From Candidatus Levyibacteriota bacterium (GTDB lineage: Bacteria; Patescibacteriota; Microgenomatia; Levybacterales; UBA12049), in assembly GCA_003173895.1 (NCBI GenBank), contig PJMG01000002.1, positions 26,974-90,973 on the forward strand: a stretch of DNA of 64,000 nt, given 5' to 3'. This document shows positions 16,912 to 64,000 of the stretch, one piece after another; position 1 is the first letter of the stretch; each line of letters starts with the position of its first letter. A model generated the notes under the pieces. It did not search any database. It was not told where the DNA came from and saw nothing but the letters and a program-made list of their open reading frames with translations. The position numbers were made by a program, and so were the translations under genes.

Positions 16912-18713
16912 AAAGCTTTAAATTAAAAATAAATAAAAAAATATTTAGCAATATAAACCTATCTATACATACTTTTATAAATAAAGTTATTTCCAAAATA
17001 AAAACAAAAGTGACTGTTTTTAAAAATTCGCCATTTTTCTTAGAAAATAAATTTATTTTAGATTATATCTCTAAATTATTTAAAGGTGTAATAAAATTTT
17101 TCCCTAAAAATAAAAGTACATTTATTACTATTTTTACACTGCTAATTTCAATTTTATTTTTCTCGACTATTATTAAAGGTGGCAAAGGAAATCCTATCTA
17201 TTATCAAGTGGAACATAATAAACAAATAGGGGGACCTTTTGAAGATTCTATAAGTTCCGCCAGATATGCTTTAACAGAATCTATTGTTCTAAATCAATCA
17301 CTTTTCCTTTCACCTAGTTTAGCAGAATTTGCAGCACCAGACGTAGTTTATTACAAAGGTAAATTTACTTCGGTTTTTACACCAGGAATTTCATTTTTAG
17401 GTGTACCTTTTTATTTTATTGGAAGTTTGCTTGGATTACCTCAATTATTTACTTATTTTGCTACTATACTTTTTGCTATATTAGATATTTTCCTTATAGC
17501 TAGAATTGCAGTAAAAGTTGGTTCTTCATATTTAGCTGGTATAATTGGCGGATGTATTTTTATATTTTGTACAAACGCTTTAACATATGGAATAAATTTT
17601 ACACAGCATGATGTAACTGCTGCAGTAGTTTTACTGGCTTTACTTAACGCATTCTCTAAAAGAAATTGGATAAATAATACTTTATTTGGTGTTCTAGTTG
17701 GAGCTAGTTTATTAATAGATATTCCAAATATTATTTTTTTGGCTCCTATTGGTTTATATATTTTGGCAAAAAGTTTTAGCTTTAAACAAATCAGAACACG
17801 TACTCAATTAATTTTTAATACTACTATTTTTGGTTTTATAGTTGGATTTATTCCCTTAATAATGCTTTTTGGTTGGTATAATTATCAGACTACTGGCTCA
17901 TATACTAAATTAGCCCAAAGTATAGGTATAACTAGTATGTTTTCTAAAAATGTCCCTCCTCAATTTGCGCCTAATAAACCATCTACGGCTCAACCAGTAT
18001 CTTTTAACTTTAATTTACATATCCCATTTGAAACACGTATTCAAGTAGAGGGTTTATACATTTTACTATTAAGTAACGAAAGATCTTGGATATTTTATTC
18101 TCCAATAGTTTTTGTTGGATTAATAGGCTTTATTTTACTTTATACAAAGATTGAAACACGATCTAAATCGCTGCTTATTTTAAGCATTATTATCGTAAAC
18201 ATACTTTTATATTCTATGTTTGATGATCCTTGGGGAGGATGGGCTTTTGGACCTAGATATTTGATACCTTCAGCAGCACTTTTAACAACTATGATTCCAG
18301 CTGCTATTGATCGTTTTAGGAAAAATATTATATTTATACTGCTATTTGTAATATTACTATATTATAGTATTTGGGTTAATGTTTTAGGAGCTTTAACCAC
18401 GTCTGCTATACCCCCTAAAGTAGAAGCGGTAGCATTACCTACACACATTCCATGGACATATAAATATAATGAACAGCTTATTAGTACTGGATTATTAACT
18501 TCTCTTATATATAATCTTTTTTTAACTAATTTAATTAGTCCCAACTTTTATTGGAATATACTTACAATTTCTATTTTTGTTTTCTTTATCATTTTATATA
18601 TTTTGCAATTTACTAAAACTGATAGAGTGGAATTTTTTCAGTCAATTTCACATGGATTTTATATTAAAAATAAATTTAAGTCAGTTTTTAATAGATTATT
18701 TAAATCACACTAA
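16908..18713 (+). CDS. GT-C fold membrane glycosyltransferase (PMT/ArnT-like), paralog A
   Basis: 601-aa multi-pass protein. Loop motif DDPWGGWAFGPRYLIP is shared with the ORF at 21620. The N-terminal loop is also similar. Confidence 0.5.
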   Translation: MKSFKLKINKKIFSNINLSIHTFINKVISKIKTKVTVFKNSPFFLENKFILDYISKLFKGVIKFFPKNKSTFITIFTLLISILFFSTIIKGGKGNPIYYQVEHNKQIGGPFEDSISSARYALTESIVLNQSLFLSPSLAEFAAPDVVYYKGKFTSVFTPGISFLGVPFYFIGSLLGLPQLFTYFATILFAILDIFLIARIAVKVGSSYLAGIIGGCIFIFCTNALTYGINFTQHDVTAAVVLLALLNAFSKRNWINNTLFGVLVGASLLIDIPNIIFLAPIGLYILAKSFSFKQIRTRTQLIFNTTIFGFIVGFIPLIMLFGWYNYQTTGSYTKLAQSIGITSMFSKNVPPQFAPNKPSTAQPVSFNFNLHIPFETRIQVEGLYILLLSNERSWIFYSPIVFVGLIGFILLYTKIETRSKSLLILSIIIVNILLYSMFDDPWGGWAFGPRYLIPSAALLTTMIPAAIDRFRKNIIFILLFVILLYYSIWVNVLGALTTSAIPPKVEAVALPTHIPWTYKYNEQLISTGLLTSLIYNLFLTNLISPNFYWNILTISIFVFFIILYILQFTKTDRVEFFQSISHGFYIKNKFKSVFNRLFKSH

Positions 18714-18715
18714 AT

Positions 18716-20341
18716 ATGATAAATATTAATCAAATCACTTTAAACGTACCAAACGGCTTATTTAAAAATACGGTTTCTAATTTTTTTAAAAAATATGCAA
18801 TTGTGTTTCTATCCATTATTTTATCTATTATTTCAATTGGTTCTTTTATACTTTTTTATAAAAATGGATTAGGGCTAGCCTACAATGATGCTAGATCACA
18901 TTTAGATATCGGCCGCCGCGTGGTAGAAGGTCTTAAACCAGGATTAGCTCAATTAGGTTCTGTTTGGCTACCTTTACCTCATATGCTCATGATTCCTACT
19001 ATTTGGAATGATTTTATGTGGCATTCTGGTCTTTCAGGTGCTTTACAATCCATGATTTCATTTGTAGGTACAGGTATTATTATTTACGTTTTCCTTAAAA
19101 AACTTAATGTTAACTTTATTGGAAGAATAATTGGTTTATTAGTTTTCGTGGCCAATTGGAACGTTTTATATCTTCAATCAACTGCTATGACTGAATTATT
19201 ACTTATTGGAACTATGACTGCTGGTGTTTATTATTTACTAATTTGGCAAGATTCAGAGAAAATTTTAGATTTAATTAAAGCCTCATTTTGGATAATGCTT
19301 TCTACTTTAAATCGTTATGATGGTTGGTTTTTATTAGTCATGGCAACTATTTTAGTAGGAATTATTACTTTAAGAAAACGCGGATATAAAGTAACTGAAG
19401 GTGTTATATTATTATTTTTAACATTAGCAGGAATTGGAATTGCATTATGGGTTTTATGGAATCTTCTTATTTTTAAAGATCCTTTATACTTTATCTTAGG
19501 CCCCTATTCTGCACATGCTCAGCAACAACAATTATCCCAAGCTGGTAACTTACCAACTAAGCATAATTTATGGCTTTCAACTTTTATATATTATTATGCA
19601 TTGGCTTTTAATGTAGGTATAGTAACACTTATCATAGGATCTATAGGAACTTTATTATTTTATTTTGATAAAAAAATTAGCTCAAACGTAAAGATTATTT
19701 GTTTAGCATTATTTGCGCCACTTATTTTTAATATTATTGCTTTATACTTTGGTTTTTCAGTTCTTTTTATTCAAGGTATTTCTGGAAATACTTGGTTTAA
19801 TGTTCGTTATGGAGTTATGATGGTCCCAACTATTGCTATTTTTATTGGCTATTTAGTAAGTAAACTTAAAAATTTTAGACCTGTACTTATAGGAGTTATT
19901 CTTATGATACTTTTCTTTTCCATGTCTAGTGCTGATGCTGTAACCGTAGATGATGCTAGAGTAGGTTCAAGCCAAGTAAATGTTAGTGCCGCTGGTAATT
20001 GGTTAAATCAAAATGCTAAAAATAAACCAGGATTTGTACTTATTTCTGCAGCTTCTCATGATGCTATAATTTTCTCATCAGGACTTCCAATGAGTAAATT
20101 TATTCATGAAGGAACTGGAGCTTATTGGTTATCTGCTACTAAAAGCCCAGATAGATGGGCTAGATGGATAGTTATGAGAACAAATGATAATACAGATCAG
20201 ACTTGGAAACTGGTTAGTAAATCTCCTGGTTTTAAACGTTTTAAGCTAGTTGGGCACTTCCCATTTGCAGATATTTATGAACTTAAGCCTCAATATCTAA
20301 ATCAACTGGAAACAAAACCTGTTTTCGGAAAACAAAAGTAA
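18716..20341 (+). CDS. Multi-pass membrane protein, possibly a GT-C-like glycosyltransferase
   Basis: 541 aa with about 11 TM helices. An extracytoplasmic loop after TM1 reads YNDARSHLDIGRRVVEG. Confidence 0.3.
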   Translation: MININQITLNVPNGLFKNTVSNFFKKYAIVFLSIILSIISIGSFILFYKNGLGLAYNDARSHLDIGRRVVEGLKPGLAQLGSVWLPLPHMLMIPTIWNDFMWHSGLSGALQSMISFVGTGIIIYVFLKKLNVNFIGRIIGLLVFVANWNVLYLQSTAMTELLLIGTMTAGVYYLLIWQDSEKILDLIKASFWIMLSTLNRYDGWFLLVMATILVGIITLRKRGYKVTEGVILLFLTLAGIGIALWVLWNLLIFKDPLYFILGPYSAHAQQQQLSQAGNLPTKHNLWLSTFIYYYALAFNVGIVTLIIGSIGTLLFYFDKKISSNVKIICLALFAPLIFNIIALYFGFSVLFIQGISGNTWFNVRYGVMMVPTIAIFIGYLVSKLKNFRPVLIGVILMILFFSMSSADAVTVDDARVGSSQVNVSAAGNWLNQNAKNKPGFVLISAASHDAIIFSSGLPMSKFIHEGTGAYWLSATKSPDRWARWIVMRTNDNTDQTWKLVSKSPGFKRFKLVGHFPFADIYELKPQYLNQLETKPVFGKQK

Positions 20342-20342
20342 G

Positions 20343-21614
20343 ATGAAAAAATATGCCCTTACAATTTCTGCATCTATTCTCTTAATGTTTTTTATTTTTA
20401 CATTAGTTTCACATAGTGTAAAATCTAATGTAACTAATAAAACTTTTTGGCCGATTCAATCAATAGATACTATGAAATATTCTAGAGATGATTCTGCTGA
20501 TTCTTCTATTTATCAAAAAATACCAATAATTGTAAGTGAAGTGGCAAACCTTCATGCGAATTATATTTCGATAGATACTCCTTATGATGATCAATTTTAT
20601 CCTGTCCTTAAAGCATGGGTAGATGAAGCCAGACAAGAACATTTAAAAATCTGGTTTAGAGGAAATTTTTCTGCTTGGGAAGGATGGTTCGGATATCAAA
20701 AGTTTAGTAATCCAAATGAAGATCACGCTTTAGTTCATGACTTTATTATTAAACATCCAGATCTTTTTCAAAATGGAGATATTTTTACTTCTGTCCCTGA
20801 GGCAGAAAATGGTGTAATAGGTGATCCACGCGGTTCTGATGAAAAAACTCAACAGTTTAATCAATTTTTAATAACTTCATATAATAACTGTGTTAGTAGT
20901 TTTGAAATTATTCATAAGCAAGTTTCATGTGGTTACTTTAGTGTAAACGGCGATGTAGCAAAAGAGGTTTTAACACCAGAGACAATTAAGCAAATTGGTA
21001 ATGTAGTAGTTATAGACCACTATGTAGATAGTTCTGCTCAAATGGATGTGGATTTGCATTTTTTAACTAATAAATTCCCTAATGCAGAAATAATTCTGGG
21101 GGAATTTGGTGCACCTATTCCGGATATTAATGGAGACATGAATGAAACTCAGCAAGCAGAATTTTTAAATCAATTACTTAATGTTTTTTATGAAAATAAA
21201 AATGTAATTGGTGGAATTAATTATTGGGTAGGTTCAGGTGGATCAACCGCTCTTTATAGAGATGATAATACTGAGAAACCAGCGGTTAAAATAATGCAAA
21301 AGTATTACGACCCTTCAGTAGTAAGTGGAATCGTAACTAATACTGATGGTACTCCATTATCTAATATCTCTATATACGGTATAAATAATTTGCTCTTAGC
21401 CACTACTGATTCCAATGGTAATTATAGTTTTCCGGCTTTTTCAGATTCTCCTATGGAGTTAAGTATTAGTGATCCACATTATCAAAAAATTGATCAGATT
21501 ATTGTACCTAAAAATAGGCAAATGACATACAATATTATACTCTCTCCTAAGAAAACTAATATTATTTATAAAATACGTCTCTTTATAAATAGTTTATTTA
21601 ATTTGTCAAAATAG
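20343..21614 (+). CDS. Secreted protein with a putative clan GH-A-like hydrolase domain and a C-terminal carboxypeptidase-regulatory-like beta-sandwich
   Basis: An N-terminal signal/anchor is present. IILGEFGAP is a candidate nucleophile motif. The C-terminal segment SGIVTNTDGTPLSNISIYG...TTDSNGNYSF resembles CarboxypepD_reg. Confidence 0.35.
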   Translation: MKKYALTISASILLMFFIFTLVSHSVKSNVTNKTFWPIQSIDTMKYSRDDSADSSIYQKIPIIVSEVANLHANYISIDTPYDDQFYPVLKAWVDEARQEHLKIWFRGNFSAWEGWFGYQKFSNPNEDHALVHDFIIKHPDLFQNGDIFTSVPEAENGVIGDPRGSDEKTQQFNQFLITSYNNCVSSFEIIHKQVSCGYFSVNGDVAKEVLTPETIKQIGNVVVIDHYVDSSAQMDVDLHFLTNKFPNAEIILGEFGAPIPDINGDMNETQQAEFLNQLLNVFYENKNVIGGINYWVGSGGSTALYRDDNTEKPAVKIMQKYYDPSVVSGIVTNTDGTPLSNISIYGINNLLLATTDSNGNYSFPAFSDSPMELSISDPHYQKIDQIIVPKNRQMTYNIILSPKKTNIIYKIRLFINSLFNLSK

Positions 21615-21619
21615 ACTGT

Positions 21620-23152
21620 ATGTTTTTAAAAATTAAAAATAATTTTGGTCTAATTTTATTAATTTTCTTTATTAGTTTTATTTATTTTCTTACATTAAGA
21701 GGAGTTAATGGAAATTTATACCCTAATGGAAAAGGTAATGAAAAAATTATATCAAACACTCCTCCTTTTGAGACATCCCTAGAAAGAGGCAGATATGCTC
21801 AAACTATAGCAATTGCTGAGAATCATACATTCATTCTAGATAAATTTAGAAATTTTATAAAACCTGATTTAGCCTGGTATAATGGTCATTATTTTTCTCC
21901 ATTCCCTCCTGGAGTTTCAGTTTTAGCTACACCCTTTTATTTAATTGGTAAGAAGACGCAGTTAAATCAACTTTTTACTTTTTCTACTTCTGCAATTTTC
22001 TCTATTCTTACGGGCATTATACTTATTTTTATTGGTAAAAAAATTAATTTTTCTAATAGATCTATTGCTCTCATGCTTTTAGTTTATTTAGTAGCATCCA
22101 ACGGTTGGGCATATGGAGTAACTTTTTCTGCTCATCCTATTTCTGCTTTTATTATTTCCACTTTTTTTTTACTAGGTCTTAATATTAAACCTGGTAAGAA
22201 TAATATTTTAAATTTTATTTTACTAGGCTTTCTTTATGGATTAAATTTTTATATTGATTATCCTAACCTTTTTATTTTAATTCCCTTATTAATTTGGGCC
22301 GTGTTTAAAAGCTTTTCTAGTCATAATGAGAAGGAAAATTATGAAATTTCTATACCTTCCAGTTTATTATTTATAATTTTGTCATTTTTGGTTTCTCTTA
22401 TACCCTTTTTTATATTTAATTTTCATTATTATCATAAATGGATTGCTCTCACTAATAGTTATAATCTAAAAGCATTGGAAGAAAGAGGAGTAACTTTTTC
22501 TTATAACCATCTTTCTAATAGCCTATTTAATAAAAAATCATATTCTACCAGATTTGATTTTATGAGTATCCCACGTGGAATTTTTACGCTAATTTTTAGT
22601 AGTGATCGAGGATTATTATTTTTCTTTCCTATTTATATCTTTGGATTTTTAGGATTTATAATGGGGCTCTTTAAGAAAAATAAATTTATAATTCCTCTTT
22701 TTCTCACTTTTTTATTTGATTTGCTTTTATATGGTTCGTTTAATGATCCTTGGGGAGGATGGGCTTTTGGACCTAGATATTTAATCCCAGTTTTACCACT
22801 TTTCGCTATATTTATAGGCTTAGCATTTGAATACTTAGAAAAGAGAACAATTTTTAAAATTATTTTTAGTTTCTTATTTATATTTAGTTCTATAGTTGCT
22901 TTAGCAGGCGCACTTACTACTAATGCTGTACCTCCTATTATAGAAAATATTCCAAATACTCCTACTAATTTCATGCTTAATTTTCAATTTTTAATGAATA
23001 ATATGACGAGCTCTTTTTTCTATAATACATTTCTTAGACATATTTTATCTCCTTTCTCTTATTACTTAGCTCTATTATCAGTGACTATTTTAGTGATTCT
23101 ATTTATAATCTGGCTCCCATTATTACATATTGCAAAAAATACGAAAATGTGA
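21620..23152 (+). CDS. GT-C fold membrane glycosyltransferase (PMT/ArnT-like), paralog B
   Basis: Shares NDPWGGWAFGPRYLIP and N-terminal loop similarity with the ORF at 16908. Confidence 0.5.
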   Translation: MFLKIKNNFGLILLIFFISFIYFLTLRGVNGNLYPNGKGNEKIISNTPPFETSLERGRYAQTIAIAENHTFILDKFRNFIKPDLAWYNGHYFSPFPPGVSVLATPFYLIGKKTQLNQLFTFSTSAIFSILTGIILIFIGKKINFSNRSIALMLLVYLVASNGWAYGVTFSAHPISAFIISTFFLLGLNIKPGKNNILNFILLGFLYGLNFYIDYPNLFILIPLLIWAVFKSFSSHNEKENYEISIPSSLLFIILSFLVSLIPFFIFNFHYYHKWIALTNSYNLKALEERGVTFSYNHLSNSLFNKKSYSTRFDFMSIPRGIFTLIFSSDRGLLFFFPIYIFGFLGFIMGLFKKNKFIIPLFLTFLFDLLLYGSFNDPWGGWAFGPRYLIPVLPLFAIFIGLAFEYLEKRTIFKIIFSFLFIFSSIVALAGALTTNAVPPIIENIPNTPTNFMLNFQFLMNNMTSSFFYNTFLRHILSPFSYYLALLSVTILVILFIIWLPLLHIAKNTKM

Positions 23153-32234: not shown

Positions 32235-34064
32235 ATGGATGATTTTATACTCACATTTAATCACATTTCCAATATTGATAAGAACTATTTAGGAAAAGAA
32301 ATTATAGAACAATCTACATTAGAACATGAAGGAATTATTATCAGTCCATCTATTATTTTAACTAACTCTGCACTTCTCTATTTTTTAAAGCAACAAAATA
32401 TTTTAGAGACACTAAATAATGAAAAAAATATTAAAAAAATAAAAACCATTTTTCATGATGCTAAATTTCCTGAAAATTTAGCCAAAAGAATTTTGGCACA
32501 TTATCATAAATTAGCAGGAGCTATAAAGGAATCTGAACTTAAACTTACTCCTTTTATTATTTATGGAGATCATGAAAAAGAATTAAATTCCACAGTAACT
32601 AAAGGAGAAGCTAATTTAGTTTTAGAAATTAAAGAAGTTTGGAGAGAATTTTTAGAAAATAATTATGTTACATTTGAAAATAATTTTACAGATAATAGAC
32701 CTAAAATTGTTATATTAATACAGAAAAAACCTAAGTTGGATTTAAAAGGTGAAATTTATACATCTAAATTCTTTAGGAACAGAAAAGTTATTGAAATAAT
32801 ATTAACTATTAAAGGTAAAAATAAAAAAATCATTCTTGATAAGCAAAATGAAGAAATAATAGAAGGAGAACAACTTAAAATATATAAGAAATATTTAAAT
32901 CAAATTTTTAATACTGCTAATAAAATAGATAAGCTTTTATATTTACCTAAAAAATGTGACTTTTATATTGAAAAGAATAAATTATTTATTACTCAGATTC
33001 TAGATGATTCTAGCTTTAGTAAAACAGTCGTAGAATCTGAAAAAGAAGATAGATTAATTTTAAGTGGTGAAAATATAAAACCAGGTTTGGTAAGTGGGAA
33101 AGCAGTTGTTTTTAATCATAAAATAAATCAAGCTAAAAATATTTTAATTTTAGATTTTTTTGGTCGCGAGGATTTAAAATACTTTAAAAACGCACTGGGT
33201 TTAGTTTTAACTAAAAAAGAAAATATTAGTTTACTTGAGAATTTACAGTTACCAATCATTTTTAGTAAAGAAGCAAAAAATAAAATAAAAAATGAAGATT
33301 TAATTACTATAAATGGGACTACTGGTGAAATTTTTAAAGGTGGATATATTCATCCTAAAATAATTGCTACAAATAATTATAAAACTGCAACTAAAATTTT
33401 AGTTAATTTAAATGATGAAAATATTAGTGATCTTATAAGGAATTTTTCAGATGGGATTTTTTATGAATCTACTTTTCAACCAGTTTCTCATTTTGAAAAT
33501 TTATCAAATAATGTTAATAAAAAAATTATTTATAGTCTTATTTCTGATGATACAAATTTAGAAAAAGAGTTAAAGATAATAAAATTATTAAGAAATAAAA
33601 ACAGATTAAATAATATTTCCATCTCTATATCTAACGCAAATACTATTGATGAAATTATAAATAATAAAAAAATAATTGCAGCAAATGGACTTTATAGAAG
33701 TCATACATTTGAAGAATTTTTAAAAATAAAAACTATTTCCGAATGCGAATCTTTTACAGAAATTTTAAATTTAAACTTTGATGGAATAATTTTTGATTTA
33801 AAAACTTTAACAAATTATTATTTTGGTGAAGACTTAGAAATATTAAAAGATAATCCTGAATTTGAAAATTTTATTTTAGAAACTATAAAACACTTTTCCA
33901 AAGATAATTTAAAACTTTTTATAGACTTAACAAAAGTAAGTATTTCTCATTATTTTTTAAATAAACTTATAACTATTGGCTTAACTGGATTTTTAGTTAA
34001 TAAGAGTGACTTTATAGATAAAAAAACTAAAATAAGAACTATAGAAAAGAAATTACTAGAATAA
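32235..34064 (+). CDS. PEP-utilising enzyme / pyruvate-phosphate dikinase-like protein. It appears to lack the phospho-His.
   Basis: N-terminal NYLGKE...GIIISPSIILTNSA resembles PPDK_N. INGTTGEIFKGG resembles the PEP-utilisers mobile domain. The expected GGRTSHAAI box instead reads GREDLKYFKNAL. Confidence 0.4.
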   Translation: MDDFILTFNHISNIDKNYLGKEIIEQSTLEHEGIIISPSIILTNSALLYFLKQQNILETLNNEKNIKKIKTIFHDAKFPENLAKRILAHYHKLAGAIKESELKLTPFIIYGDHEKELNSTVTKGEANLVLEIKEVWREFLENNYVTFENNFTDNRPKIVILIQKKPKLDLKGEIYTSKFFRNRKVIEIILTIKGKNKKIILDKQNEEIIEGEQLKIYKKYLNQIFNTANKIDKLLYLPKKCDFYIEKNKLFITQILDDSSFSKTVVESEKEDRLILSGENIKPGLVSGKAVVFNHKINQAKNILILDFFGREDLKYFKNALGLVLTKKENISLLENLQLPIIFSKEAKNKIKNEDLITINGTTGEIFKGGYIHPKIIATNNYKTATKILVNLNDENISDLIRNFSDGIFYESTFQPVSHFENLSNNVNKKIIYSLISDDTNLEKELKIIKLLRNKNRLNNISISISNANTIDEIINNKKIIAANGLYRSHTFEEFLKIKTISECESFTEILNLNFDGIIFDLKTLTNYYFGEDLEILKDNPEFENFILETIKHFSKDNLKLFIDLTKVSISHYFLNKLITIGLTGFLVNKSDFIDKKTKIRTIEKKLLE

Positions 34065-53732: not shown

Positions 53733-55280
53733 TCAACTAAACGTTTTCTTAAATTGTTCTGTTGCTTTTTTAAGCAGTTCATTAACTTCTGGTGTTAATT
53801 TTTTACCAGTTTCTATTTCTGCTATTATTTTTTTGTTATGAGATCTCATAAAATTATGATATTTTTCTTCAAAAGCTGAAATTCTCTCTACTGCTATATC
53901 ATCTAGATGACCATTCGTAGCAGCCCAAATAGAAAGTACTTCATCAACTTCATCAAGAGGCTGATACTGTGGTTGAATTAAAATTTGAGATAATCTTTTA
54001 CCACGATCTAACTGTTTTTGTGTTGCTGCATCTAAATCTGACCCAAATTGTGCGAAAGCTGCTAATTCTCGATATTGTGCTAAATCTAATTTAATTCTAC
54101 CTGCTACAGATTTCATCGCACCAGTTTGAGCTGCTCCACCTACACGAGAGACTGAATTTCCTACATCCACTGCTGGTCTAGTTCCACTATTAAATAAATC
54201 ACTCTTTAAGAAAATTTGACCATCTGTAATAGAAATAACATTAGTCGGAATGTATGCAGAGATATCATCAGCTTGAGTTTCTATAACAGGAAGTGCAGTG
54301 ATAGAACCTCCACCATGTTCATCATTTAATTTAACAGCTCTTTCTAACAATCTACTATGAATATAAAAAATATCACCAGGATAAGCCTCACGGCCTGCTG
54401 GACGTTTAAGCGTTAAAGAAATTTGTCTATAAGCCCAAGCATGTTTAGTTAAATCATCATAAATAATTAATACATCCTCACCTTGTTCCATGAAATATTC
54501 TGCCACAGCTACTCCTGCATAAGGAGCTAAATATAAAAGTGCTGCTGGATCTGATGCTGTAGCACTAACGATTACTGTATAATCCAATGCTCCTGTTTCA
54601 GAAAGTTTATTAACTATTTGAGCTACACTACTTTGTTTCTGACCAATGGCTACATAAATACAAATTACTCTTTTTAACTTTTTTCCGCCGGCTGGCGGAT
54701 TTTTAGCTGTATCGTTTTGAGTTTTTTGATTAATAATAGTATCTATAGCTATAGCTGTTTTACCTAAGCCTCTATCACCGATAATTAACTCTCTTTGTCC
54801 TCGACCAATTGGGATCAATGAGTCAATGGCTTTAATTCCAGTTTTAAGTGGAGTATCTACACTTTTTCGTTCTACTATTCCTGGAGCAATTTTTTCCAGT
54901 AACATATCTTTACCTTTTTTCGGTGCTGGTTTACCATCTAAAGCATCACCAATAGGATTTACTACACGACCTAATAAATCATTTGAAGCATTAATCTTTA
55001 AAATATTTCCTGTAGTTTTAACTGTTTGTCCTTCTCTAATATTTGTAGATTTTCCCAAAAGAATAATACCTACACTATCTTCATCCAAATTAATAATAAA
55101 TCCTTTAGTTTTATCCTCGAAAATAACCTCCTCACCCATGAGGGCTTTAGACAGTCCTGAAGCGCTAATCACATCATCAGTTACCTTTTCAACTGTTCCT
55201 ATATTTTCTACTTTAGGATCTGTAGATAAACGTGATAACTTATTTTCTAGTTTTTTTATAATTTCATCAGAATTAATCAT
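53733..55280 (-). CDS. atpA: F1 ATP synthase alpha subunit
   Basis: P-loop GDRGLGKTAIAIDTI. Conserved over the full length. Confidence 0.95.
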   Translation of the reverse strand: MINSDEIIKKLENKLSRLSTDPKVENIGTVEKVTDDVISASGLSKALMGEEVIFEDKTKGFIINLDEDSVGIILLGKSTNIREGQTVKTTGNILKINASNDLLGRVVNPIGDALDGKPAPKKGKDMLLEKIAPGIVERKSVDTPLKTGIKAIDSLIPIGRGQRELIIGDRGLGKTAIAIDTIINQKTQNDTAKNPPAGGKKLKRVICIYVAIGQKQSSVAQIVNKLSETGALDYTVIVSATASDPAALLYLAPYAGVAVAEYFMEQGEDVLIIYDDLTKHAWAYRQISLTLKRPAGREAYPGDIFYIHSRLLERAVKLNDEHGGGSITALPVIETQADDISAYIPTNVISITDGQIFLKSDLFNSGTRPAVDVGNSVSRVGGAAQTGAMKSVAGRIKLDLAQYRELAAFAQFGSDLDAATQKQLDRGKRLSQILIQPQYQPLDEVDEVLSIWAATNGHLDDIAVERISAFEEKYHNFMRSHNKKIIAEIETGKKLTPEVNELLKKATEQFKKTFS

Positions 55281-55632
55281 AATTTTCGTCTATAAAATCT
55301 AAAAAATCATCTAATTTGCGCTCCAAAGAAAAATCATAGACCATGTCGGCATATTTTATCTTCGCACCTAACATTAAAAGCTTATTTTCCTCTATATGAA
55401 TATCCTTGTCTGGAAAAATATCTAAAAATAGTTGTTTGGACTTATTATAAATTGAAGCTCGAGGGATCGCAATATGTACTTTCTTTTTATCTTCCTGCAT
55501 TTTTAATTCTTTAATATATTTTTTTAGTTCACTTCGAGGTAAAAGTGAAGCAATTTTATTCACCTTTTTATCATCTAAGTTTTTTTTAGTATAACTAGCT
55601 TGTACTAAATCTTTTATATCTTTCTTTGTCAT
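55273..55632 (-). CDS. atpH: Very short (119 aa) delta/OSCP-like subunit
   Basis: Sits between atpF and atpA. C-terminal LGAKIKYADMVYDFSLERKL resembles the OSCP C-terminal motif. It appears to lack the N-terminal helical domain. Confidence 0.45.
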   Translation of the reverse strand: MTKKDIKDLVQASYTKKNLDDKKVNKIASLLPRSELKKYIKELKMQEDKKKVHIAIPRASIYNKSKQLFLDIFPDKDIHIEENKLLMLGAKIKYADMVYDFSLERKLDDFLDFIDENYD

Positions 55633-57214: not shown

Positions 57215-57247
57215 TAAGCTTATTTTACTTGAAATTATATTTTTCCG

Positions 57248-58573
57248 TCAATGGAGAAGTTGTTTAATTACTTTTATTTTCTCTCTAACTTCTGCTAATT
57301 TCTTCTCATCCTCACGTAAAAGTTGAACTACTTCTGCTGCTAGTACAGCTTCTTTTTCATCAATATAGATCATAGGAGATGTACCTATTTGAAGACCAAA
57401 ATGAATTTGTACATTATTATCTTTATTTAAAAATGGTAAATATGACGCTACTGCTCCATTTAATTCGTAATGACCTTTATTAGGAATATCCGTATCCTCA
57501 TCTTTATTTTTGGCTAATTGAAAGTGTAAATGTCCATAAATAATTTGAGAAATTTCTAAATTAGACTCTGTTAATAGTTTTATTAGGTATTGAGTTCCAT
57601 AGATTACTTTTTGATGCTCACTAGCTTTATTAAAATCAAAATTTTCATCAGGATTTGCTTGATTATGCATTTTTCCATCTGGTTCAGCGTGAGTTATAAT
57701 TTGAATTTTTTTACCTTTTTCCCTTGCCACTTTTGCTTTATTTAAAAGATTGATAATTTTTTCGTCCTTAGCTAATTCTTCATCAGATGATCTAGCTAAT
57801 CTTACTTGTTCAGAATATGGAAGATAAATATTAAAATAATTTTCATCTTTCTCACCTTTTAAGTCATCTATAACATCTGCACCTGCCGGAGATAAAAAAT
57901 TTTTAATATTAATTCTCACATCAGCTGGTAATAAAACGGCACTATTTAATCTTTCATTATCACTGTCTGGTTTAAGTTCTGTAGGGATTCCACCTTCTTT
58001 ACCTTCCCAATTTCCTAAAATTACTTTTACATTATTACCATTTGCTATTAAATCTGTAAGTAATTGACCAAATTTATTTGCATTATAAATAACTTCGTCT
58101 TTAAATTTAACTTTTATATCTTCAGGTAAATTAGAAAGCCAATGGCCGTAATTTTGTCTAGAAAGAGCATCTATAACATAATCTGTAGCAGTTTCTATAT
58201 TAAATTCTTCTGGTTTATCCAGAAGTACCTGCATTGCTGATTGGAGATTATCATATGCTGTTCTGACTTTAGAGTCTGTTTTAGAAAGTTCTTCTTTAAG
58301 AGTTTCTAAACTAGTCGATGGATTTATACCTGATCTTTTAGTAAGAGTGTAATAGAGATCTTGCATTTGTATTAATCTAGCTGAGCCTAAAATATCACCT
58401 ATAAAAGTTATTTGCGTATCATGTAATTTAAGAAGTGGAGATAATTGATCTATCTGTCCATGCACGTCACTCACGAAAACTCTAACTTGTCCTTTTGGAA
58501 TTTGTAGTTTTTCTGCCTTTGGATCTAATCCAATAGTATCTGCAGAAGTAGGTGTAAATAGTTTTTCCGTCAT
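57248..58573 (-). CDS. Calcineurin-like metallophosphoesterase family protein
   Basis: Motif I VSDVHG. Motif II IGDILG. Motif III variant LGNWEG. Motif V IYGHLHF. Confidence 0.5.
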   Translation of the reverse strand: MTEKLFTPTSADTIGLDPKAEKLQIPKGQVRVFVSDVHGQIDQLSPLLKLHDTQITFIGDILGSARLIQMQDLYYTLTKRSGINPSTSLETLKEELSKTDSKVRTAYDNLQSAMQVLLDKPEEFNIETATDYVIDALSRQNYGHWLSNLPEDIKVKFKDEVIYNANKFGQLLTDLIANGNNVKVILGNWEGKEGGIPTELKPDSDNERLNSAVLLPADVRINIKNFLSPAGADVIDDLKGEKDENYFNIYLPYSEQVRLARSSDEELAKDEKIINLLNKAKVAREKGKKIQIITHAEPDGKMHNQANPDENFDFNKASEHQKVIYGTQYLIKLLTESNLEISQIIYGHLHFQLAKNKDEDTDIPNKGHYELNGAVASYLPFLNKDNNVQIHFGLQIGTSPMIYIDEKEAVLAAEVVQLLREDEKKLAEVREKIKVIKQLLH

Positions 58574-58634
58574 TAGAATATTATAAGATGATTTATGACA
58601 ATTAACAACTCAGAATAAAATAGAAAATTAGAAG

Positions 58635-58904
58635 TTATTTATCGTGGAAAACTGGTAAACCTCTATCACTTTTTGCTTGTTCTTTATTCATACGCTCCCA
58701 TCCTTTATCACTAATTTTATTTTCTCTTTTTAGTAATCTTAGGGTGCGTCTGCCACCATTGACCAAAGATAATGCTCTTTCTATTCCTTCAAGAATTGCT
58801 AAATTAAATTTTTCTGCTGGAGAAAGGTAATCATATGCACCACGAATTGGTTTTACTTCTGGTGTAGCTGCTGGTTGTGCGTTATCAAACTCTATAGCTG
58901 CCAT
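58635..58904 (-). CDS. Hypothetical small protein (89 aa)
   Basis: ORF with non-low-complexity sequence and higher GC than the glycan loci. Confidence 0.25.
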   Translation of the reverse strand: MAAIEFDNAQPAATPEVKPIRGAYDYLSPAEKFNLAILEGIERALSLVNGGRRTLRLLKRENKISDKGWERMNKEQAKSDRGLPVFHDK

Positions 58905-58987
58905 ATATTGTGTTTATACAGTAACACATCTTATAATAAATGTCAAGATAACTATCTTTTTTTTATATTTTTTGTTATCATCAATTT

Positions 58988-60124
58988 ATGCCCGAACAAG
59001 AAGGCCACCAACCAATTCCCGAAGCTCCCACCGATGCAGAAATTAACCAATTTAATACTATATCTCGTAAAATCACTGCATATATGGAATACCAAATGTC
59101 TCAAGGACAAACACCACATTTACCATCTGGATTAGATCCTGTAGTGGTTAGGCATTTAGTTGAAATGTGGGCTCCAACCGGCGCCCCAGCAGTGGCTTTC
59201 GCTGATGTAGTAAGGGATTTAACAGAAAAAGAAGAACATAGATTTCAGCTTATTAATGATAGTAAAGAAATTTTTGATAGAATAGCTCGTGGTGTTGAGG
59301 CAATTGTTTTAAGTCATGGTACATCTTTAGAAGCAGTTCAGGGTATTAATACAGATGAAATAGATACATCTAGAGGACCAGCTCCCAGAAAGATAGCTGG
59401 TTTTTCTTTACCGGGTCAAAAAGCTAGAGAGCGTGAAGCAGAGAATTATAGATTATTAAGATGGGAAATAGCTCCATTTCATACAGATGGACGTGAATTA
59501 CCTCAATTACAACGTATTCACTATATACGTGATGCGTCTGCTAAAGAATTTGATATTACAGAATATGAATTCCAATTAATAGATCAGGTAACTTCTGAAG
59601 GTGGTAAAAAAGCAAAGGAAGAAATTCAAGATGGGCCAATTTTTGCACTAGAATTTGATCCAGCAACCCATGAAATCAACGGAATTAAAATTTCTTGGAA
59701 ACAGATAACTCGAAATTTAGCTCTGAGTTCTCCTGATCTTTTTCTATCTATAATAAAAGCTAAAAGCCCTGCTCTATCTAATCTTATTGATCGTACTATG
59801 ATAAAACCAGAGCTACTTGCAGGAGTAACAGATGTAGACTACACTTTACAAATTGATTTAGGAAACAGTGCTTTAGGAAGATCACCATCTATTAATTTTG
59901 TAACAAAATATTTACAGATAAGCGGTAGCCCCCAAACTGAGATAACAAGGCATAATGTAGAAAATAAAAATCAGTATACTTATACTTCTGACTCTGGAAA
60001 AGAAGGATCATTCCAATTGAGAGGAAAAGGACCAGAAGAAAGTATCTCTGAGGCTGAATATATAAATATACTTAGAGGAGTAAGAGATATGATGCCTGTA
60101 GATAAAATTCGTCAAGCTAGTTAA
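58988..60124 (+). CDS. Hypothetical protein (378 aa)
   Basis: Intact ORF with no recognisable motif. It is convergent with the NTase gene at 60128-60769. Confidence 0.3.
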   Translation: MPEQEGHQPIPEAPTDAEINQFNTISRKITAYMEYQMSQGQTPHLPSGLDPVVVRHLVEMWAPTGAPAVAFADVVRDLTEKEEHRFQLINDSKEIFDRIARGVEAIVLSHGTSLEAVQGINTDEIDTSRGPAPRKIAGFSLPGQKAREREAENYRLLRWEIAPFHTDGRELPQLQRIHYIRDASAKEFDITEYEFQLIDQVTSEGGKKAKEEIQDGPIFALEFDPATHEINGIKISWKQITRNLALSSPDLFLSIIKAKSPALSNLIDRTMIKPELLAGVTDVDYTLQIDLGNSALGRSPSINFVTKYLQISGSPQTEITRHNVENKNQYTYTSDSGKEGSFQLRGKGPEESISEAEYINILRGVRDMMPVDKIRQAS

Positions 60125-60127
60125 AAA

Positions 60128-60769
60128 TTACTTAGAAACCATTAGAGAACCCATTTCATGATCTGGTATAACATATTTTGGAGCATTACCATTTCTATAG
60201 ATTCCATAATCATCATATGGAACTGTTCCTCTTATTAGAGTACCCGTTTGCATCATATGCTTACTAACATCATCTCTAATATCTCGATTAAAAATACCTC
60301 TTTGCCCATGGAAAAAATGTACCTCTATACCTGGACCATTACCGTAATTATCTTTCAACAAATCAAAAAAACCTAGCTGTTTTGCTTGTCCCCAGATATA
60401 GTCTGAAAGATCAGCAGGATGATGAGCAGGAATATCGTGCTTACCTATTTTAGTAATAGCGTTATGTACAAATAATAAATCTATATCCGAAGCTAATTGT
60501 CCGTCTTCTTTAAATCTTGGCATTTTACCTTCATAAGATAGTGAACCACCAAGAATAACACCTCCAATACCTTCCGGTAATGACATCATTTGAACAAATT
60601 CATTTAACCTATTTAGTGTATTTATACAAACCTGTCTTTCTTGTTCTTTTCCCTCAAATCTAGGGTCAGTTCTGTATCTTTCTATTAAAGTTTGGAAATC
60701 AGGGTGCATTTGTATTTCTGGCTTAGGAGAATTTTCCGTTTGTAATTCCGCAGACATAAAAGAATCCAT
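60128..60769 (-). CDS. Polymerase-beta-fold nucleotidyltransferase (NTP_transf_2-like) protein
   Basis: GGVILGGSLSYEGKMPRFKEDGQLASDIDLLFV fits the hG[GS]...[DE]h[DE]h NTase signature, with an insertion. Confidence 0.5.
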   Translation of the reverse strand: MDSFMSAELQTENSPKPEIQMHPDFQTLIERYRTDPRFEGKEQERQVCINTLNRLNEFVQMMSLPEGIGGVILGGSLSYEGKMPRFKEDGQLASDIDLLFVHNAITKIGKHDIPAHHPADLSDYIWGQAKQLGFFDLLKDNYGNGPGIEVHFFHGQRGIFNRDIRDDVSKHMMQTGTLIRGTVPYDDYGIYRNGNAPKYVIPDHEMGSLMVSK

Positions 60770-60832
60770 AATTTTAAATTAATAAATTCAATTTTAATTG
60801 TCAAGCTAGTTAAGTTTTTATATGAAATAATT

Positions 60833-62668
60833 TTACGCGGCAACTAAAAGTTTTGGTCTATAATGCTGAACTATTTCTTTAACATTTTCATATCCACCTT
60901 GATCTAAAACCGCAGCATACATCAGCTTATCTAACCAACCTTCATCTTCTTGTCCTAAAACACCAATTAATTGTTCTGTTTGCGTATGTATATTTTCTTC
61001 TCGATTATTATCTGAATGAGATTCCATATATTCATTTAACATTTGTATTACTTCATCTCTAGTTCTTAGTTTCCCTGACATAAATAAAGCTTCTGCCCAA
61101 ATTCCTGCTACTCTACGGGATTTATCATCGAGAGCATTTAACTCTAAGTTATGTTTAAACCATCTTATGTCATTTATTAACTGTAATGCCTTTTCTTCAC
61201 TATATTCATGCTTTATATCTTCGATGTACTTATTAAACCTTTGTGTATGTGTAAGACCAAAATGTCCTTCCACGAGTCCTAGATTTATATCAATATCTAT
61301 ATGACCTGCTTTAAAGAATAGCACTATTTCTTCGCCTGAACATTTTAAATAATTAAATTGAACATTTTTAAATTTAGTTTCTAAAGCTTGAGTACAAGCT
61401 TCTATAGTAATAGCTACTTTAGGATCCATTTTCTTAATATCGTCAATATTTTTTATTTCATTTAATTTTCCTACTACTATACCTTCTGGAACTCCTTTGC
61501 GGTTACCGGCTTCATCAATGCGCATATATGTATCCACATTTTTCCAATCTAAGCCAGTTTCTGATAATGAGGGAATATTAGTTACTATAACATCACAATC
61601 TGCGACATTAGTATTATTATCTTTTCCATTATCGACAGCTACATTGGTACCACGATTAAATGAACCCATATCGTGAGCTTGGCCTGATGAAGTGGGATAT
61701 GCTTCAGCTATCTTAGGGCCTAAAAGATCAGTTATAGTTTTACTTAAGTCTTGTTGTCTTTTTATTTGCTCCCACGTCATTGCTACAATTCTATCTCTTC
61801 CTAAATCTAATAAAGATCTACCCTCCCTAGTTTTACAGCTTTTTATCATATTAAAAGCATCTAATACGCGGGCTTGTTTAGGGGAAACACGTGCATCCTT
61901 AGGAGTAGGAAGCATTTCATTATAAAAGTCCTTTATAGAATTGGGATATACATCTAAACTTTCGGGATTGAATATATCGGGATGAGCTACATCATTAAGT
62001 ATAGATAATGAGTAAGTAGCATCTGATAATTGTAGTAATATTTCTATAAATTTACTCTCATCTGCTGTTAATGGTTCTTTATTTTTAGGTAAAGTATCAA
62101 GCTTTCTAACTAAATATTCGAAAGTGTCATCTGGTCGCATATCTTTTAACTGTATAGTCTGTAAAATAGCTTGAGTTTCTAATAAGCTAGGATCGAACTC
62201 ATTAGCTAGTTTAGGAATATATTTATTTAAAATAGGAAACATATCTCTTATATCTACTCTTTCTAATAAATCAGCCATATTTATATTTTGAAGGCCTACA
62301 ATATCAGCAATTCTTTTTATATGATTTAAAACAGCCACTTCAGTATAACTTCGAGCAATTTCAAAATCTCTTTTTATGAAATTTTCTGAAGCTTCTTGCA
62401 TTATAGTTTCTGCTATATCTTTTATAGTTTCTACCTTATCTGGTTGATCTACTGTAAGCGCTATAGTATGGGCTATTGTATTAGCTAGCGCATGATCTAA
62501 AATAGTATTTTTTTCATTAAAATTATTAGTACTTTGTGCTTCTTTTCCTGATTGAATTAATTTATCTCTTAAATTTTGGAGTTGAGTTTCTTTAGAAACA
62601 GGAGTTACAGACTCAAGTGTAGCTGGAGAATTTAAAGCTTCTGCTGCTTCTGGCGTCATTGTGTCCAT
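60833..62668 (-). CDS. Large hypothetical protein (611 aa) with a C-terminal nucleotidyltransferase-fold domain (OAS/CD-NTase-like signature)
   Basis: GSFNRGTNV-(12-aa insert)-ADCDVIV resembles GSxxxGTxx...SDxDhhV. A later HIDIDINL segment is a candidate third acidic strand. The N-terminal 330 aa are helical and of unknown function. Confidence 0.4.
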   Translation of the reverse strand: MDTMTPEAAEALNSPATLESVTPVSKETQLQNLRDKLIQSGKEAQSTNNFNEKNTILDHALANTIAHTIALTVDQPDKVETIKDIAETIMQEASENFIKRDFEIARSYTEVAVLNHIKRIADIVGLQNINMADLLERVDIRDMFPILNKYIPKLANEFDPSLLETQAILQTIQLKDMRPDDTFEYLVRKLDTLPKNKEPLTADESKFIEILLQLSDATYSLSILNDVAHPDIFNPESLDVYPNSIKDFYNEMLPTPKDARVSPKQARVLDAFNMIKSCKTREGRSLLDLGRDRIVAMTWEQIKRQQDLSKTITDLLGPKIAEAYPTSSGQAHDMGSFNRGTNVAVDNGKDNNTNVADCDVIVTNIPSLSETGLDWKNVDTYMRIDEAGNRKGVPEGIVVGKLNEIKNIDDIKKMDPKVAITIEACTQALETKFKNVQFNYLKCSGEEIVLFFKAGHIDIDINLGLVEGHFGLTHTQRFNKYIEDIKHEYSEEKALQLINDIRWFKHNLELNALDDKSRRVAGIWAEALFMSGKLRTRDEVIQMLNEYMESHSDNNREENIHTQTEQLIGVLGQEDEGWLDKLMYAAVLDQGGYENVKEIVQHYRPKLLVAA

Positions 62669-62746
62669 ATATTAACACGACCTATAAGAATAGTCAAATA
62701 ACATAAATAGGCTCATTTTTAACAATATACTAAGCAAATATATATG

Positions 62747-63271
62747 TCAATCTAGCATTCCCTGAGCCTTACGCCTAGTACGATCTTTTTGGTAATATTC
62801 ATTAATATCCTGTACTAAATGTTTTAAACCAAGTTTATCTAAAGCATCTTCTTTTTTCATTCCTTTAGATTTTAACAACATATTTTTAATAGTTTCTATT
62901 TGAGTTATGTCTTGAATTAGCCCCATATTAATACATGTCTGGATTAAAAAATTAAAAATTGGAGAATCTGGTGTAATGTTTCTTACATCGGAGGAAACAA
63001 AATAATCTATACCGTCAACAGTAGTTGGTATTTCTCTATCTTTATTACTTTTCAAAGTTCTTACATGATATTTATAAGGTTCAAAAATTTTATCTGCGAA
63101 GAAAGTAGTGGGTAAAGGTGCTTCTTCATAAAGCATAATTTGATTTGAGCTTATTATGATCAAAGTATGATCTCCACTCATTAAAGTGGGTAATTCTTCT
63201 AAAGCTGATTCAGGAGAAACTGGTTTAGGCTCTTGGATTATTCGAGTACCTCTTTCCAATCTATTAATCAT
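62747..63271 (-). CDS. Hypothetical protein (174 aa) lying 4 bp downstream of dnaE
   Basis: ORF only. Tightly linked to dnaE. Confidence 0.25.
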   Translation of the reverse strand: MINRLERGTRIIQEPKPVSPESALEELPTLMSGDHTLIIISSNQIMLYEEAPLPTTFFADKIFEPYKYHVRTLKSNKDREIPTTVDGIDYFVSSDVRNITPDSPIFNFLIQTCINMGLIQDITQIETIKNMLLKSKGMKKEDALDKLGLKHLVQDINEYYQKDRTRRKAQGMLD

Positions 63272-63275
63272 AATT

Positions 63276-64000
63276 TTAATTAGCCTCCATTTTTTTAATT
63301 CTAGAAACGATAATTATTGGTCTTTCATCTTTAAAATCCAGTTTCCCTTCAACAATGACTATTTTATCTTTTATTAAATCATTTTTGTTCTCAGCGAAAG
63401 TTCTAGGAAACACTATACATTCTACCGTGAGTCCTCGCTCATTACTTATAGCTAAAAACGCCATTTCCTGATTACTCTTACGTGTCATAAATTTTTTAAC
63501 GCGATCTATCATTCCACCCACGACGATTAGAGTCCCATCTTTTTCATCAGATAAAATTTCCAACTCATGCGTAATATAGTTTTTCAGCTTGGTAATATAT
63601 TGCTCCTGTGGATGAGATGTGAGATAAATCCCCAGTAATTCTTTTTCAAAAGATAATTTTTCATTTTGAGTAAAATCTTCAACCTGATCCCATTTTTTAG
63701 ATACTTTTATTTCTGTATGTTTAGATTCTTCATCACCAAAAAGTGAACCCTGACCATCTGTTTTTTGTTTCCTGATTTTAGCTACACTTTCAACTATTTC
63801 TGGAAATGTAGAAAGCATAACTACTCTTTTACCAAATTTATCCATAGCACCTGCTTTAATCAAACTTTCCAGAGTTTTTTTATTTACTGCAGCACCTTCT
63901 AAACGGTTACAAAAATCTTCCAAACTTTTAAAATCTCCTTTTTCTTTCTCGATTAAAATAGAAGAAATAGCAGCAGTTCCTACATTCTTAATCGCAGATA
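63276..64000 (-). CDS. dnaE: DNA polymerase III alpha subunit, C-terminal part. The gene continues past the window end.
   Basis: The frame stays open to the window edge (...IKNVGTAAISSIL...). FCNRLEGAAVNKKTLESLIKAGAMDKFG matches the DnaE C-terminal region, and an OB-fold segment follows. Confidence 0.6.
   Translation of the reverse strand, partial: SAIKNVGTAAISSILIEKEKGDFKSLEDFCNRLEGAAVNKKTLESLIKAGAMDKFGKRVVMLSTFPEIVESVAKIRKQKTDGQGSLFGDEESKHTEIKVSKKWDQVEDFTQNEKLSFEKELLGIYLTSHPQEQYITKLKNYITHELEILSDEKDGTLIVVGGMIDRVKKFMTRKSNQEMAFLAISNERGLTVECIVFPRTFAENKNDLIKDKIVIVEGKLDFKDERPIIIVSRIKKMEAN

Follow-up and report, generated by a model that had tools for sequence, protein, structure and literature searches.

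The closest described counterparts of the enzyme considered here are nucleotidyltransferases (NTases) of the polymerase-beta (pol-beta) fold, among them the cGAS/DncV-like NTases (CD-NTases) of cyclic oligonucleotide-based antiphage signaling systems (CBASS), the oligoadenylate synthases (OAS), and the non-canonical poly(A) polymerases (PAPs) and terminal uridylyltransferases (TUTases), the last two being mainly eukaryotic families. OAS1 carries a motif very like GS..G-T..D-x-D, and the GS loop is the activation-loop region in cGAS and OAS. Two kinds of phosphoesterase also enter the comparison: 2H enzymes, which act on 2',3'-cyclic phosphate RNA ends, and the YfcE/MJ0936 "GNC" subgroup of the calcineurin-like metallophosphoesterases (MPEs), in which the histidine of the GNH motif is replaced. 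Here we analyze a run of six genes, referred to as the island, between dnaE and the atp operon in a 64,000-nucleotide stretch of contig PJMG01000002.1 (the window). Counted from dnaE, the genes encode proteins of 174, 611, 213, 378, 89 and 441 amino acids (aa). An earlier reading of the sequence (the original prediction) had described this run as two pol-beta-fold NTases and a variant phosphoesterase that might form an undescribed nucleotide-signaling module. Its coordinates, strands and lengths agree with the list of open reading frames (ORFs) for all six genes, and the 174-aa ORF does start 4 bp beyond the dnaE stop. The analysis identifies the run as a lineage-specific insertion of orphan genes, in which the C-terminal half of the 611-aa protein is a predicted NTase of the OAS/cGAS class, and gives no support to a multi-gene module.

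The architecture of the 611-aa protein became apparent from its relatives. An exhaustive phmmer search over 1.84 billion cluster representatives (clustered at 50% identity) returned 20 proteins, none of which is full-length. One of them, P0007 (273 aa), spans residues 25-289 of the 611-aa protein with 38% identity (E 4.5e-34), and the remaining ones span approximately residues 293-602 with 26-36% identity. Since the relatives split by half, the 611-aa protein fuses two modules that are found separately elsewhere. P0007 is encoded by a stand-alone gene (locus L001) without an NTase neighbor, and the unannotated genes around it, checked as cryptic NTases, are not NTases. The N-terminal domain of the 611-aa protein has no Pfam match. 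Across the NTase family the N-terminal fusions vary and include, in P0013 (L020, 8010-9698), a 2H-phosphoesterase-like domain with two HxT motifs (HATL at residue 92 and HITL at residue 210), the match of which to PF13563 (24.8 bits) lies below the cutoff of 27 bits. N-terminal domains are exchanged within the NTase family, the members of which stand alone.

Conservation within this family carries the assignment of the C-terminal domain. Alignments were made of 17 members first and of 25 later, and S336, G340, T341, D357, D359, W375, D415, D460, H474, I501 and K505 are invariant in them, with G335 nearly so. The GS-x3-GT...DCDVIV signature that had been read in the 611-aa protein lies at residues 335-362 and is conserved in the family, where it takes the form of the pol-beta hG[GS]...DhDh pattern with a third carboxylate and, after it, a DIRxLK helix that is likewise conserved. 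The original prediction had named loss of these residues among homologs, and a match to a housekeeping family, as results that would speak against it; the residues proved to be conserved, and neither Pfam nor NCBIfam gives a match to housekeeping NTases (GlnE/GlnD, the poly(A) polymerase PcnB or the CCA-adding enzyme). The insertion it placed in the loop is also present, although it measures about 9 aa instead of 12: the GT and DxD elements are separated by 15 residues in the 611-aa protein, versus 6 in 13 of 16 relatives and 7-9 in the other three. This lineage-specific insertion in the GS loop may alter regulation of the enzyme.

An AlphaFold2 (AF2) model of residues 293-611, built on the family alignment, reached a predicted local distance difference test (pLDDT) score of 86 and a predicted template modeling (pTM) score of 0.85, with the lowest confidence in the GS-DxD loop that carries the 9-aa insertion. 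A Foldseek search of the PDB with this model returned only bilobed template-independent NTases, headed by the CBASS cyclase CdnC (6p80; E 4e-4, template modeling (TM) score 0.48) and TUT7 (E 9e-4) and continuing with GLD-2, TUT1, Tailor, poly(A) polymerases, DwCdnB, CdnD, OAS1 and OAS3. The predicted fold superposes on solved CD-NTases, but TUTases and PAPs score alike, so that the model does not discriminate within the class. At the level of sequence profiles, seven of the 17 relatives weakly match one and the same PADLOC "oligonucleotide-cyclase" model, with matches spread across about ten such models in all (best E 8.2e-5), and the family hidden Markov model, run against the PDB, picks out no NTases other than CD-NTases (6e0m, 6p8u and 6p82), each short of significance. 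Pfam recognizes the family poorly: the 17 members yield only two matches to NTP_transf_2 (E ~0.07), and none contains a PAP-associated (PF03828) or PAP_central domain. The call of an OAS/cGAS-type NTase in the C-terminal part is therefore supported by the alignment, the fold and the weak cyclase matches of the relatives. We conclude that the C-terminal 319 aa are a predicted OAS/cGAS-class pol-beta NTase with intact active-site residues, and that, judged from alignment and model, the family appears closest to the CD-NTases within this class and is at most a candidate member of that branch.

The dnaE|atpB junction was compared with its equivalent in relatives ranked by AtpB identity (L018, 78%; L019, 76%; L014, 74%; L015/L016, 70%; L017, 69%). 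At five loci from four lineages (L018, L019, L014 and L015/L016), no other gene intervenes between dnaE and atpB, which lie 47-84 bp apart, and the six genes (57248-63275, 6.0 kb) exactly fill this junction, which is empty in the nearest relatives. In L017 the same junction (7895-9949) is occupied by two unrelated Pfam-less genes encoding 127 aa (minus strand) and 540 aa (plus strand), neither of which has a PADLOC match. The end of dnaE in the window falls at the residue where dnaE of L014, L015 and L017 also ends, and a promoter-like element, TTGAC-N17/18-TA(A/C)AAT, is common to the window and these three loci upstream of atpB. The TGA stop codon of the MPE gene is embedded in the -35 hexamer of this element, so that the island ends exactly at the atp promoter-like site. 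Searches with tblastn found no match to any of the six genes in any relative's locus. As the nearest relatives have nothing at this junction and L017 has other genes, the 6.0-kb run is a lineage-specific insertion at a variable site, made up of orphan genes, and the dnaE|atpB junction is a recurrent insertion site in this lineage of the candidate phyla radiation (CPR).

The insertion shows no trace of a mobile vehicle in the features that were searched. No integrase is encoded in the window, the only RNA gene is a tRNA 11 kb away, and the island edges have no boundary repeats. An origin from a prophage or plasmid was rejected, as no relatives of the island genes were found in IMG/VR, BFVD, PHROGs or GenBank phages, and the MPE has none in phages or plasmids. 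The third-codon-position GC content (GC3) of all six genes (0.13-0.19) equals that of host genes. From this, a recent date of insertion was rejected, and with it recent horizontal transfer or any direct origin from Chloroflexota (~50% GC), the group to which most NTase relatives belong. Scans for promoters and terminators found sites no more numerous than in shuffled sequence, and operon structure is hence not inferable from them. The window itself is a chromosomal segment of ~30% GC that contains glycosyltransferase genes, uvrB, pyrG, a complete atpBEFHAGD(C) operon and the 3' end of dnaE. The best AtpB identity is 78%, and the host is taken to be a CPR bacterium from the source names of the AtpB relatives (Candidatus Levybacteria, Saccharimonadales and Patescibacteria). 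The features of the island and of its two boundaries are listed in Table 1.

Table 1. Features of the dnaE|atpB junction island and its boundaries, in window coordinates, listed from the dnaE side.
Feature	Position	Strand	Basis or remark
dnaE 3' end (left island boundary)	63276..64000	-	68% identity to L018 dnaE C-terminus
174-aa orphan ORF, 4 bp past dnaE stop	62747..63271	-	ORF; singleton
611-aa protein, N-terminal domain (~residues 1-292), novel	61793..62668	-	sole relative P0007
611-aa protein, C-terminal predicted NTase domain (residues 293-611)	60833..61792	-	alignment, AF2, Foldseek
Putative catalytic segment G335-S336...G340-T341...D357-x-D359 with ~9-aa insertion	61592..61666	-	invariant columns
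D460 codon (third carboxylate, 611-aa protein)	61289-61291	-	alignment
213-aa orphan, putative minimal NTase	60128..60769	-	motif only, nt 60467-60550
378-aa convergent orphan ORF	58988..60124	+	ORF; singleton
89-aa basic orphan ORF	58635..58904	-	ORF; called NCBI protein; singleton
441-aa atypical MPE	57248..58573	-	Pfam PF00149; GNWE at nt 58004-58015
atp operon promoter-like site TTGACG-18-TAAAAT (right island boundary)	57222..57251	-	promoter scan

Each of the six island proteins is a singleton cluster, represented by one NCBI contig of 91,952 bp. A first genome scan for homologs found nothing, and word-index searches of 5.8 billion proteins recovered nothing but the query for either the 611-aa or the 213-aa protein. 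The 441-aa protein, through Pfam Metallophos, is the only one of the six to match a curated family; PADLOC, NCBIfam and PHROGs gave nothing significant for any of them, nor did direct sequence searches of the PDB. The observation that no canonical partner is recognizable next to the NTase consequently holds for PADLOC, Pfam, NCBIfam and PHROGs, and no SAVED, STING, HEPN, TIR, patatin or nuclease domain and no membrane segment was detected in the island proteins. The 174-aa and 378-aa ORFs have no match in Pfam, PADLOC, NCBIfam, PHROGs, the PDB or phages; the former has no membrane segment, and the latter has a host-like GC3 of 0.166. The 89-aa ORF, which is the weakest gene call of the six and has an isoelectric point of 9.4, has no match in Pfam, PADLOC, NCBIfam or PHROGs. 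The island ORFs are long and intact in a genome of 30% GC and have host-like codon composition, which argues for selection.

In order to establish whether the NTase gene keeps constant company, the surroundings of its relatives were compared at fourteen loci from Chloroflexota and CPR genomes, those on the shorter metagenome contigs extending over only 1.7-3 kb. The neighbors vary from locus to locus. Among the longer loci, the relative in a Chloroflexia metagenome-assembled genome (MAG; L011) has a family-B DNA polymerase upstream and a GNAT acetyltransferase and a luciferase-like monooxygenase downstream, and the latter two also lie downstream of the NTase in GCA_964586845.1 (L004). Elsewhere the neighbors are hemE, hemF, a DUF1206 gene and a D-Ala-D-Ala carboxypeptidase gene (Ktedonobacteraceae MAG, L012), glycosyltransferases (Dictyobacter MAG, L013), alaS and rpoB (GCA_035606255.1, L021), or only Pfam-less genes (a 10-kb JGI metagenome contig, L020), the last description covering the called genes except those cut at the contig ends. 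The succession of the NTase, the same GNAT (Acetyltransf_3) and the monooxygenase, seen in two independent loci (2006-3559 of L004 and 11034-12582 of L011), is the sole recurring neighborhood of the family and may reflect the close relatedness of the two genomes. None of the fourteen loci contains a relative of the other five island genes, an MPE, a second NTase or a recognizable CBASS effector. The proposal that two NTases and a phosphoesterase act as a module is thus not borne out: homologs of the NTase are scattered without conserved linkage, which the original prediction had itself named as grounds for refuting it. This comparison covers the NTase gene, the other five proteins being singletons.

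The second proposed NTase, the 213-aa protein, contains ILGGS-x17-SDIDLLFV at residues 74-101, after a hydrophobic strand. The GGS...SDIDLLFV motif is unique within the 21,647 aa of ORFs in the window, and its chance expectation per proteome is ~0.8 under a loose pattern, falling to ~0.02 under a tighter one that was set after seeing the sequence. The protein has no Pfam match even at E<=10, NTP_transf_2 (PF01909) included, and no match in the PDB or PADLOC. It was considered as a paralog of the 611-aa NTase and rejected, since neither hhalign nor blastp found a relation between them. A single-sequence AF2 model reached a pLDDT of 42.6, at which fold matches are meaningless. No HEPN or AbiEi partner was found beside the gene by Pfam or PADLOC matches of its neighbors. 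Of the two NTases originally claimed, that in the 611-aa protein stands, while the 213-aa protein offers the motif only, without a profile, a homolog or a usable model.

An exact 14-nt direct repeat, GTCAAGCTAGTTAA, flanks the 213-aa gene (60111-60124 and 60800-60813). One copy holds the last codons and the stop of the convergent 378-aa gene, and the other contributes a -35 box resembling TTGACA ahead of the 213-aa gene; removing the DNA between the copies would place the 378- and 611-aa genes in convergent orientation with a spacer of ~22 bp. The repeat was considered as the signature of a cassette or target-site duplication and rejected, its length not exceeding chance for the composition (P ~0.45).

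The remaining recognizable protein is the 441-aa MPE, which passes the Pfam cutoff for PF00149 Metallophos (E 1.2e-6; 29.6 bits versus 21.5), in line with its earlier description as a calcineurin-like phosphoesterase with a GNW(E) variant motif. The metal-ligand motifs are complete (D36-x-H38, G59-D60, N188, H295 and G347-H348-x-H350). The histidine of GNH[DE], however, is replaced by tryptophan (G187-N188-W189-E190), and the partner aspartate of GDxxD is a glycine (GDILG). With GNWE and GDILG, the canonical His-Asp dyad is absent as a pair, and the activity of the enzyme, as far as motifs can tell, may be altered or reduced. Between motifs II (GD) and III (GNW) the sequence reads as a helical insert of ~95-125 aa, and Pfam detects no SAVED or other sensor domain in the protein.

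Elsewhere in the window, a 1564-aa protein (6775-11469) combines three glycosyltransferase modules (GT2, GT2-like and GT4/GT1) with predicted membrane segments, and for several large ORFs (601, 541, 510 and 609 aa; 16908-23152 and 32235-34064) Pfam gives nothing at E<=1e-5. The GC content falls to 0.22-0.235 at ~12-14 kb, 32-34 kb and 48-50 kb. At the position of the ATP synthase delta gene, the ORF (55273-55632) is only 119 aa long; its equivalents in relatives are 119-121 aa long and have no Pfam match, and it looks like a short or divergent ATP synthase delta subunit of this CPR lineage.

The account that we prefer is a lineage-specific orphan insertion bearing a self-contained, CD-NTase-like fusion enzyme and an MPE without the His-Asp dyad, in which the neighboring genes are not obligate partners; we hold it with about even confidence. 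In such an enzyme, the NTase domain would bind two Mg2+ ions through D357, D359 and D460, and the conserved DIRxxK helix would hold the triphosphate of the donor. Nucleoside triphosphates could then be joined into a signal, a short oligonucleotide of linear or cyclic form, an outcome that is plausible but falls short of probable; addition of tails to RNA 3' ends is an alternative with perhaps one chance in four, and other acceptors or inactivity make up the remainder. The variable N-terminal domain would serve as a sensing or targeting module. The 611-aa enzyme would most likely be self-contained, like its stand-alone relatives, with neighboring orphans that are probably not obligate partners. 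The location of the run, as an accessory insertion where relatives vary, would suit an accessory role or one in conflict. Several results weigh against this account. The Foldseek score of TUT7 nearly equals that of CdnC, and with TM scores of 0.3-0.5 the class within the pol-beta fold is soft. The 611-aa protein itself matches no PADLOC cyclase model and no Pfam/SMODS model, the profile matches to CD-NTases in the PDB are not significant (E 0.4-0.8), and the profile of 25 sequences did not raise their significance. The context comparison draws on relatives of only 26-36% identity, most of which belong to a different phylum, so that a lineage-specific partnership may still exist here, and an effector or sensor fold may be hidden among the five neighbors.

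The island could instead be a single undescribed CBASS-like defense module signaling through nucleotides, with the sensor-fused CD-NTase-like enzyme making the signal and one or more of its neighbors (the 213-, 378- or 174-aa protein, or the MPE) as receptor and effector or as signal degrader, which we regard as rather improbable. The CD-NTase-like fold and the cyclase-model matches of the relatives would suit it, variable junctions are frequent sites of accessory and defense genes, and the 2H fusion of P0013 would be an NTase/phosphoesterase pairing again in another form. Furthermore, calcineurin-like phosphoesterase domains are known to serve as effectors of CBASS if they are fused to SAVED (PMC10419184), and CPR genomes have a high density of defense systems per Mb (PMC12259885). 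However, PADLOC and PHROGs match none of the six proteins and Pfam only the MPE, the sensor and effector domains and membrane segments listed above are missing, and the fourteen loci of NTase relatives share no conserved neighbor, MPE or effector. Moreover, one of the island genes runs convergently, the MPE gene, at a distance of 2.3 kb from that of the NTase, adjoins the atp promoter, and the genes at the L017 junction are likewise not known defense genes. A new CPR-specific signaling system of immunity or conflict, in which the signal of a sensor-fused CD-NTase-like synthase would be read or degraded by structurally novel partners (the MPE without SAVED and without the His-Asp dyad, a cryptic minimal NTase, and the 378- and 174-aa orphans), is similarly doubtful; were it real, the wider family, with its swappable N-terminal domains, would be an unrecognized clade of effector-less or self-contained cGAS-like signaling enzymes in Chloroflexota and CPR bacteria. 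A different function, to which we assign a minor though appreciable chance, is RNA-end modification or repair, in which the NTase tails RNA 3' ends after a phosphoesterase (the MPE, or the 2H domain in P0013) has healed a 2',3'-cyclic or 3'-phosphate. Most of the 50 best Foldseek matches are to TUT7, GLD-2, Tailor, TUT1 and poly(A) polymerases, at E-values near that of CdnC, P0013 has its two HxT motifs and near-threshold 2H match, and stand-alone relatives beside housekeeping genes (alaS and rpoB in L021, heme biosynthesis in L012) fit a non-defense role. This reading is opposed by the absence of a PAP-associated or PAP_central Pfam domain from every member and of any recognizable RNA-binding domain, by profile-level matches that point to CBASS cyclases and not to PAP/TUTase models, and by an MPE that lacks the His-Asp dyad and is not linked to the NTase elsewhere.

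Two further explanations concern fewer of the genes or deny them a common theme. The 213-aa protein may be a minimal NTase toxin or antitoxin of MNT/AbiEii type, making part of the island a toxin-antitoxin pair, but this is very unlikely: against a GGS-x17-SDIDLLFV motif that is unique in the window proteome and has a low chance expectation under tighter patterns, and an order of secondary structures in the weak model that is compatible with a minimal NTase, stand the lack of any Pfam (E<=10) or PADLOC match, homolog, HEPN or other partner, the pLDDT of 42.6 and the post hoc choice of the motif patterns. There is also a slim chance that the six are unrelated, fast-evolving lineage-specific genes with no notable nucleotide role, the NTase perhaps being regulatory or inactive through its loop insertion. 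The 611-aa protein keeps every invariant catalytic residue of its family and the ORFs are long and intact at 30% GC with host-like codon composition, which this explanation does not anticipate; it would accommodate the abundance of Pfam-less genes in CPR genomes and their number in this window, the singleton status of all six proteins, and the placement of the 9-aa insertion in the GS-DxD loop, the least confident region of the model.

The family to which the 611-aa NTase belongs numbers ~20 clusters (50% identity) in the 1.84 billion representatives searched and is unrecognized by Pfam, PADLOC and NCBIfam. It would add to the cGAS/OAS/TUTase structural class a set of effector-less enzymes with interchangeable N-terminal domains, nearest to the CBASS cyclases. 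If its members make nucleotide signals, cGAS-like signaling would reach effector-less contexts and CPR bacteria, the immune repertoire of which is little known; should they instead tail RNA, bacteria would have in them a rare counterpart of the TUTases. In addition, the interval from dnaE to the atp operon is documented as a site of variable insertion in one CPR lineage. Since a multi-gene module is unsupported, the finding is of value as a candidate, not as a discovery.

Compared with known systems, the 213-aa protein shares with MNT/AbiEii and other NTP_transf_2 proteins the G-G-S...S-D-I-D-L-L-F-V motif and its small size, but differs in a loop of 17 residues versus ~10, in having no profile match and in lacking a HEPN neighbor. 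The 441-aa protein resembles the GNC subgroup of MPEs in replacing the GNH histidine, but by tryptophan and not by cysteine; unlike other PF00149 enzymes it has lost the aspartate of GDxxD and gained an insert of ~100 aa, and unlike the MPE effectors of CBASS it has no SAVED domain. For the 611-aa protein and its family, the non-canonical PAPs and TUTases (TUT7 5w0b, TUT1, Tailor, GLD-2 and Cid1-type enzymes) and canonical PAP share the two-lobe architecture and the GSxxxG(T/L)...DhD pattern, with Foldseek E-values of 1e-3 to 1e-2 but TM scores of only 0.3-0.4, and the family is without PAP Pfam domains and RNA-binding modules. OAS enzymes (OAS1 1px5 and OAS3 4s3n) belong to the same fold class at a lower structural rank (E ~1e-2); the family has no Pfam match to OAS1_C and no sign of a surface for binding double-stranded RNA, although the fusion of P0013 to a 2H-type phosphoesterase recalls a superfamily that includes enzymes degrading 2-5A. 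With respect to the CD-NTases of CBASS (CdnC 6p80, CdnE-type 6e0m, CdnD 6p8u, 6p82 and 7ljm, and DwCdnB 8ysk), no adjacent effector or Cap gene was found for the 611-aa protein or its relatives, the family has an extra conserved D-W insert between DxD and the third aspartate, and the 611-aa protein adds a 290-aa N-terminal fusion and the 9-aa loop insertion. The bilobed pol-beta core and helical C-terminal lobe are nonetheless shared with these enzymes, and the GS(Y/F)xxxT-N...D-h-D-h motif of the family aligns residue for residue with that of 6e0m (GSYRNNTNV..SDVDIV), the third aspartate included.

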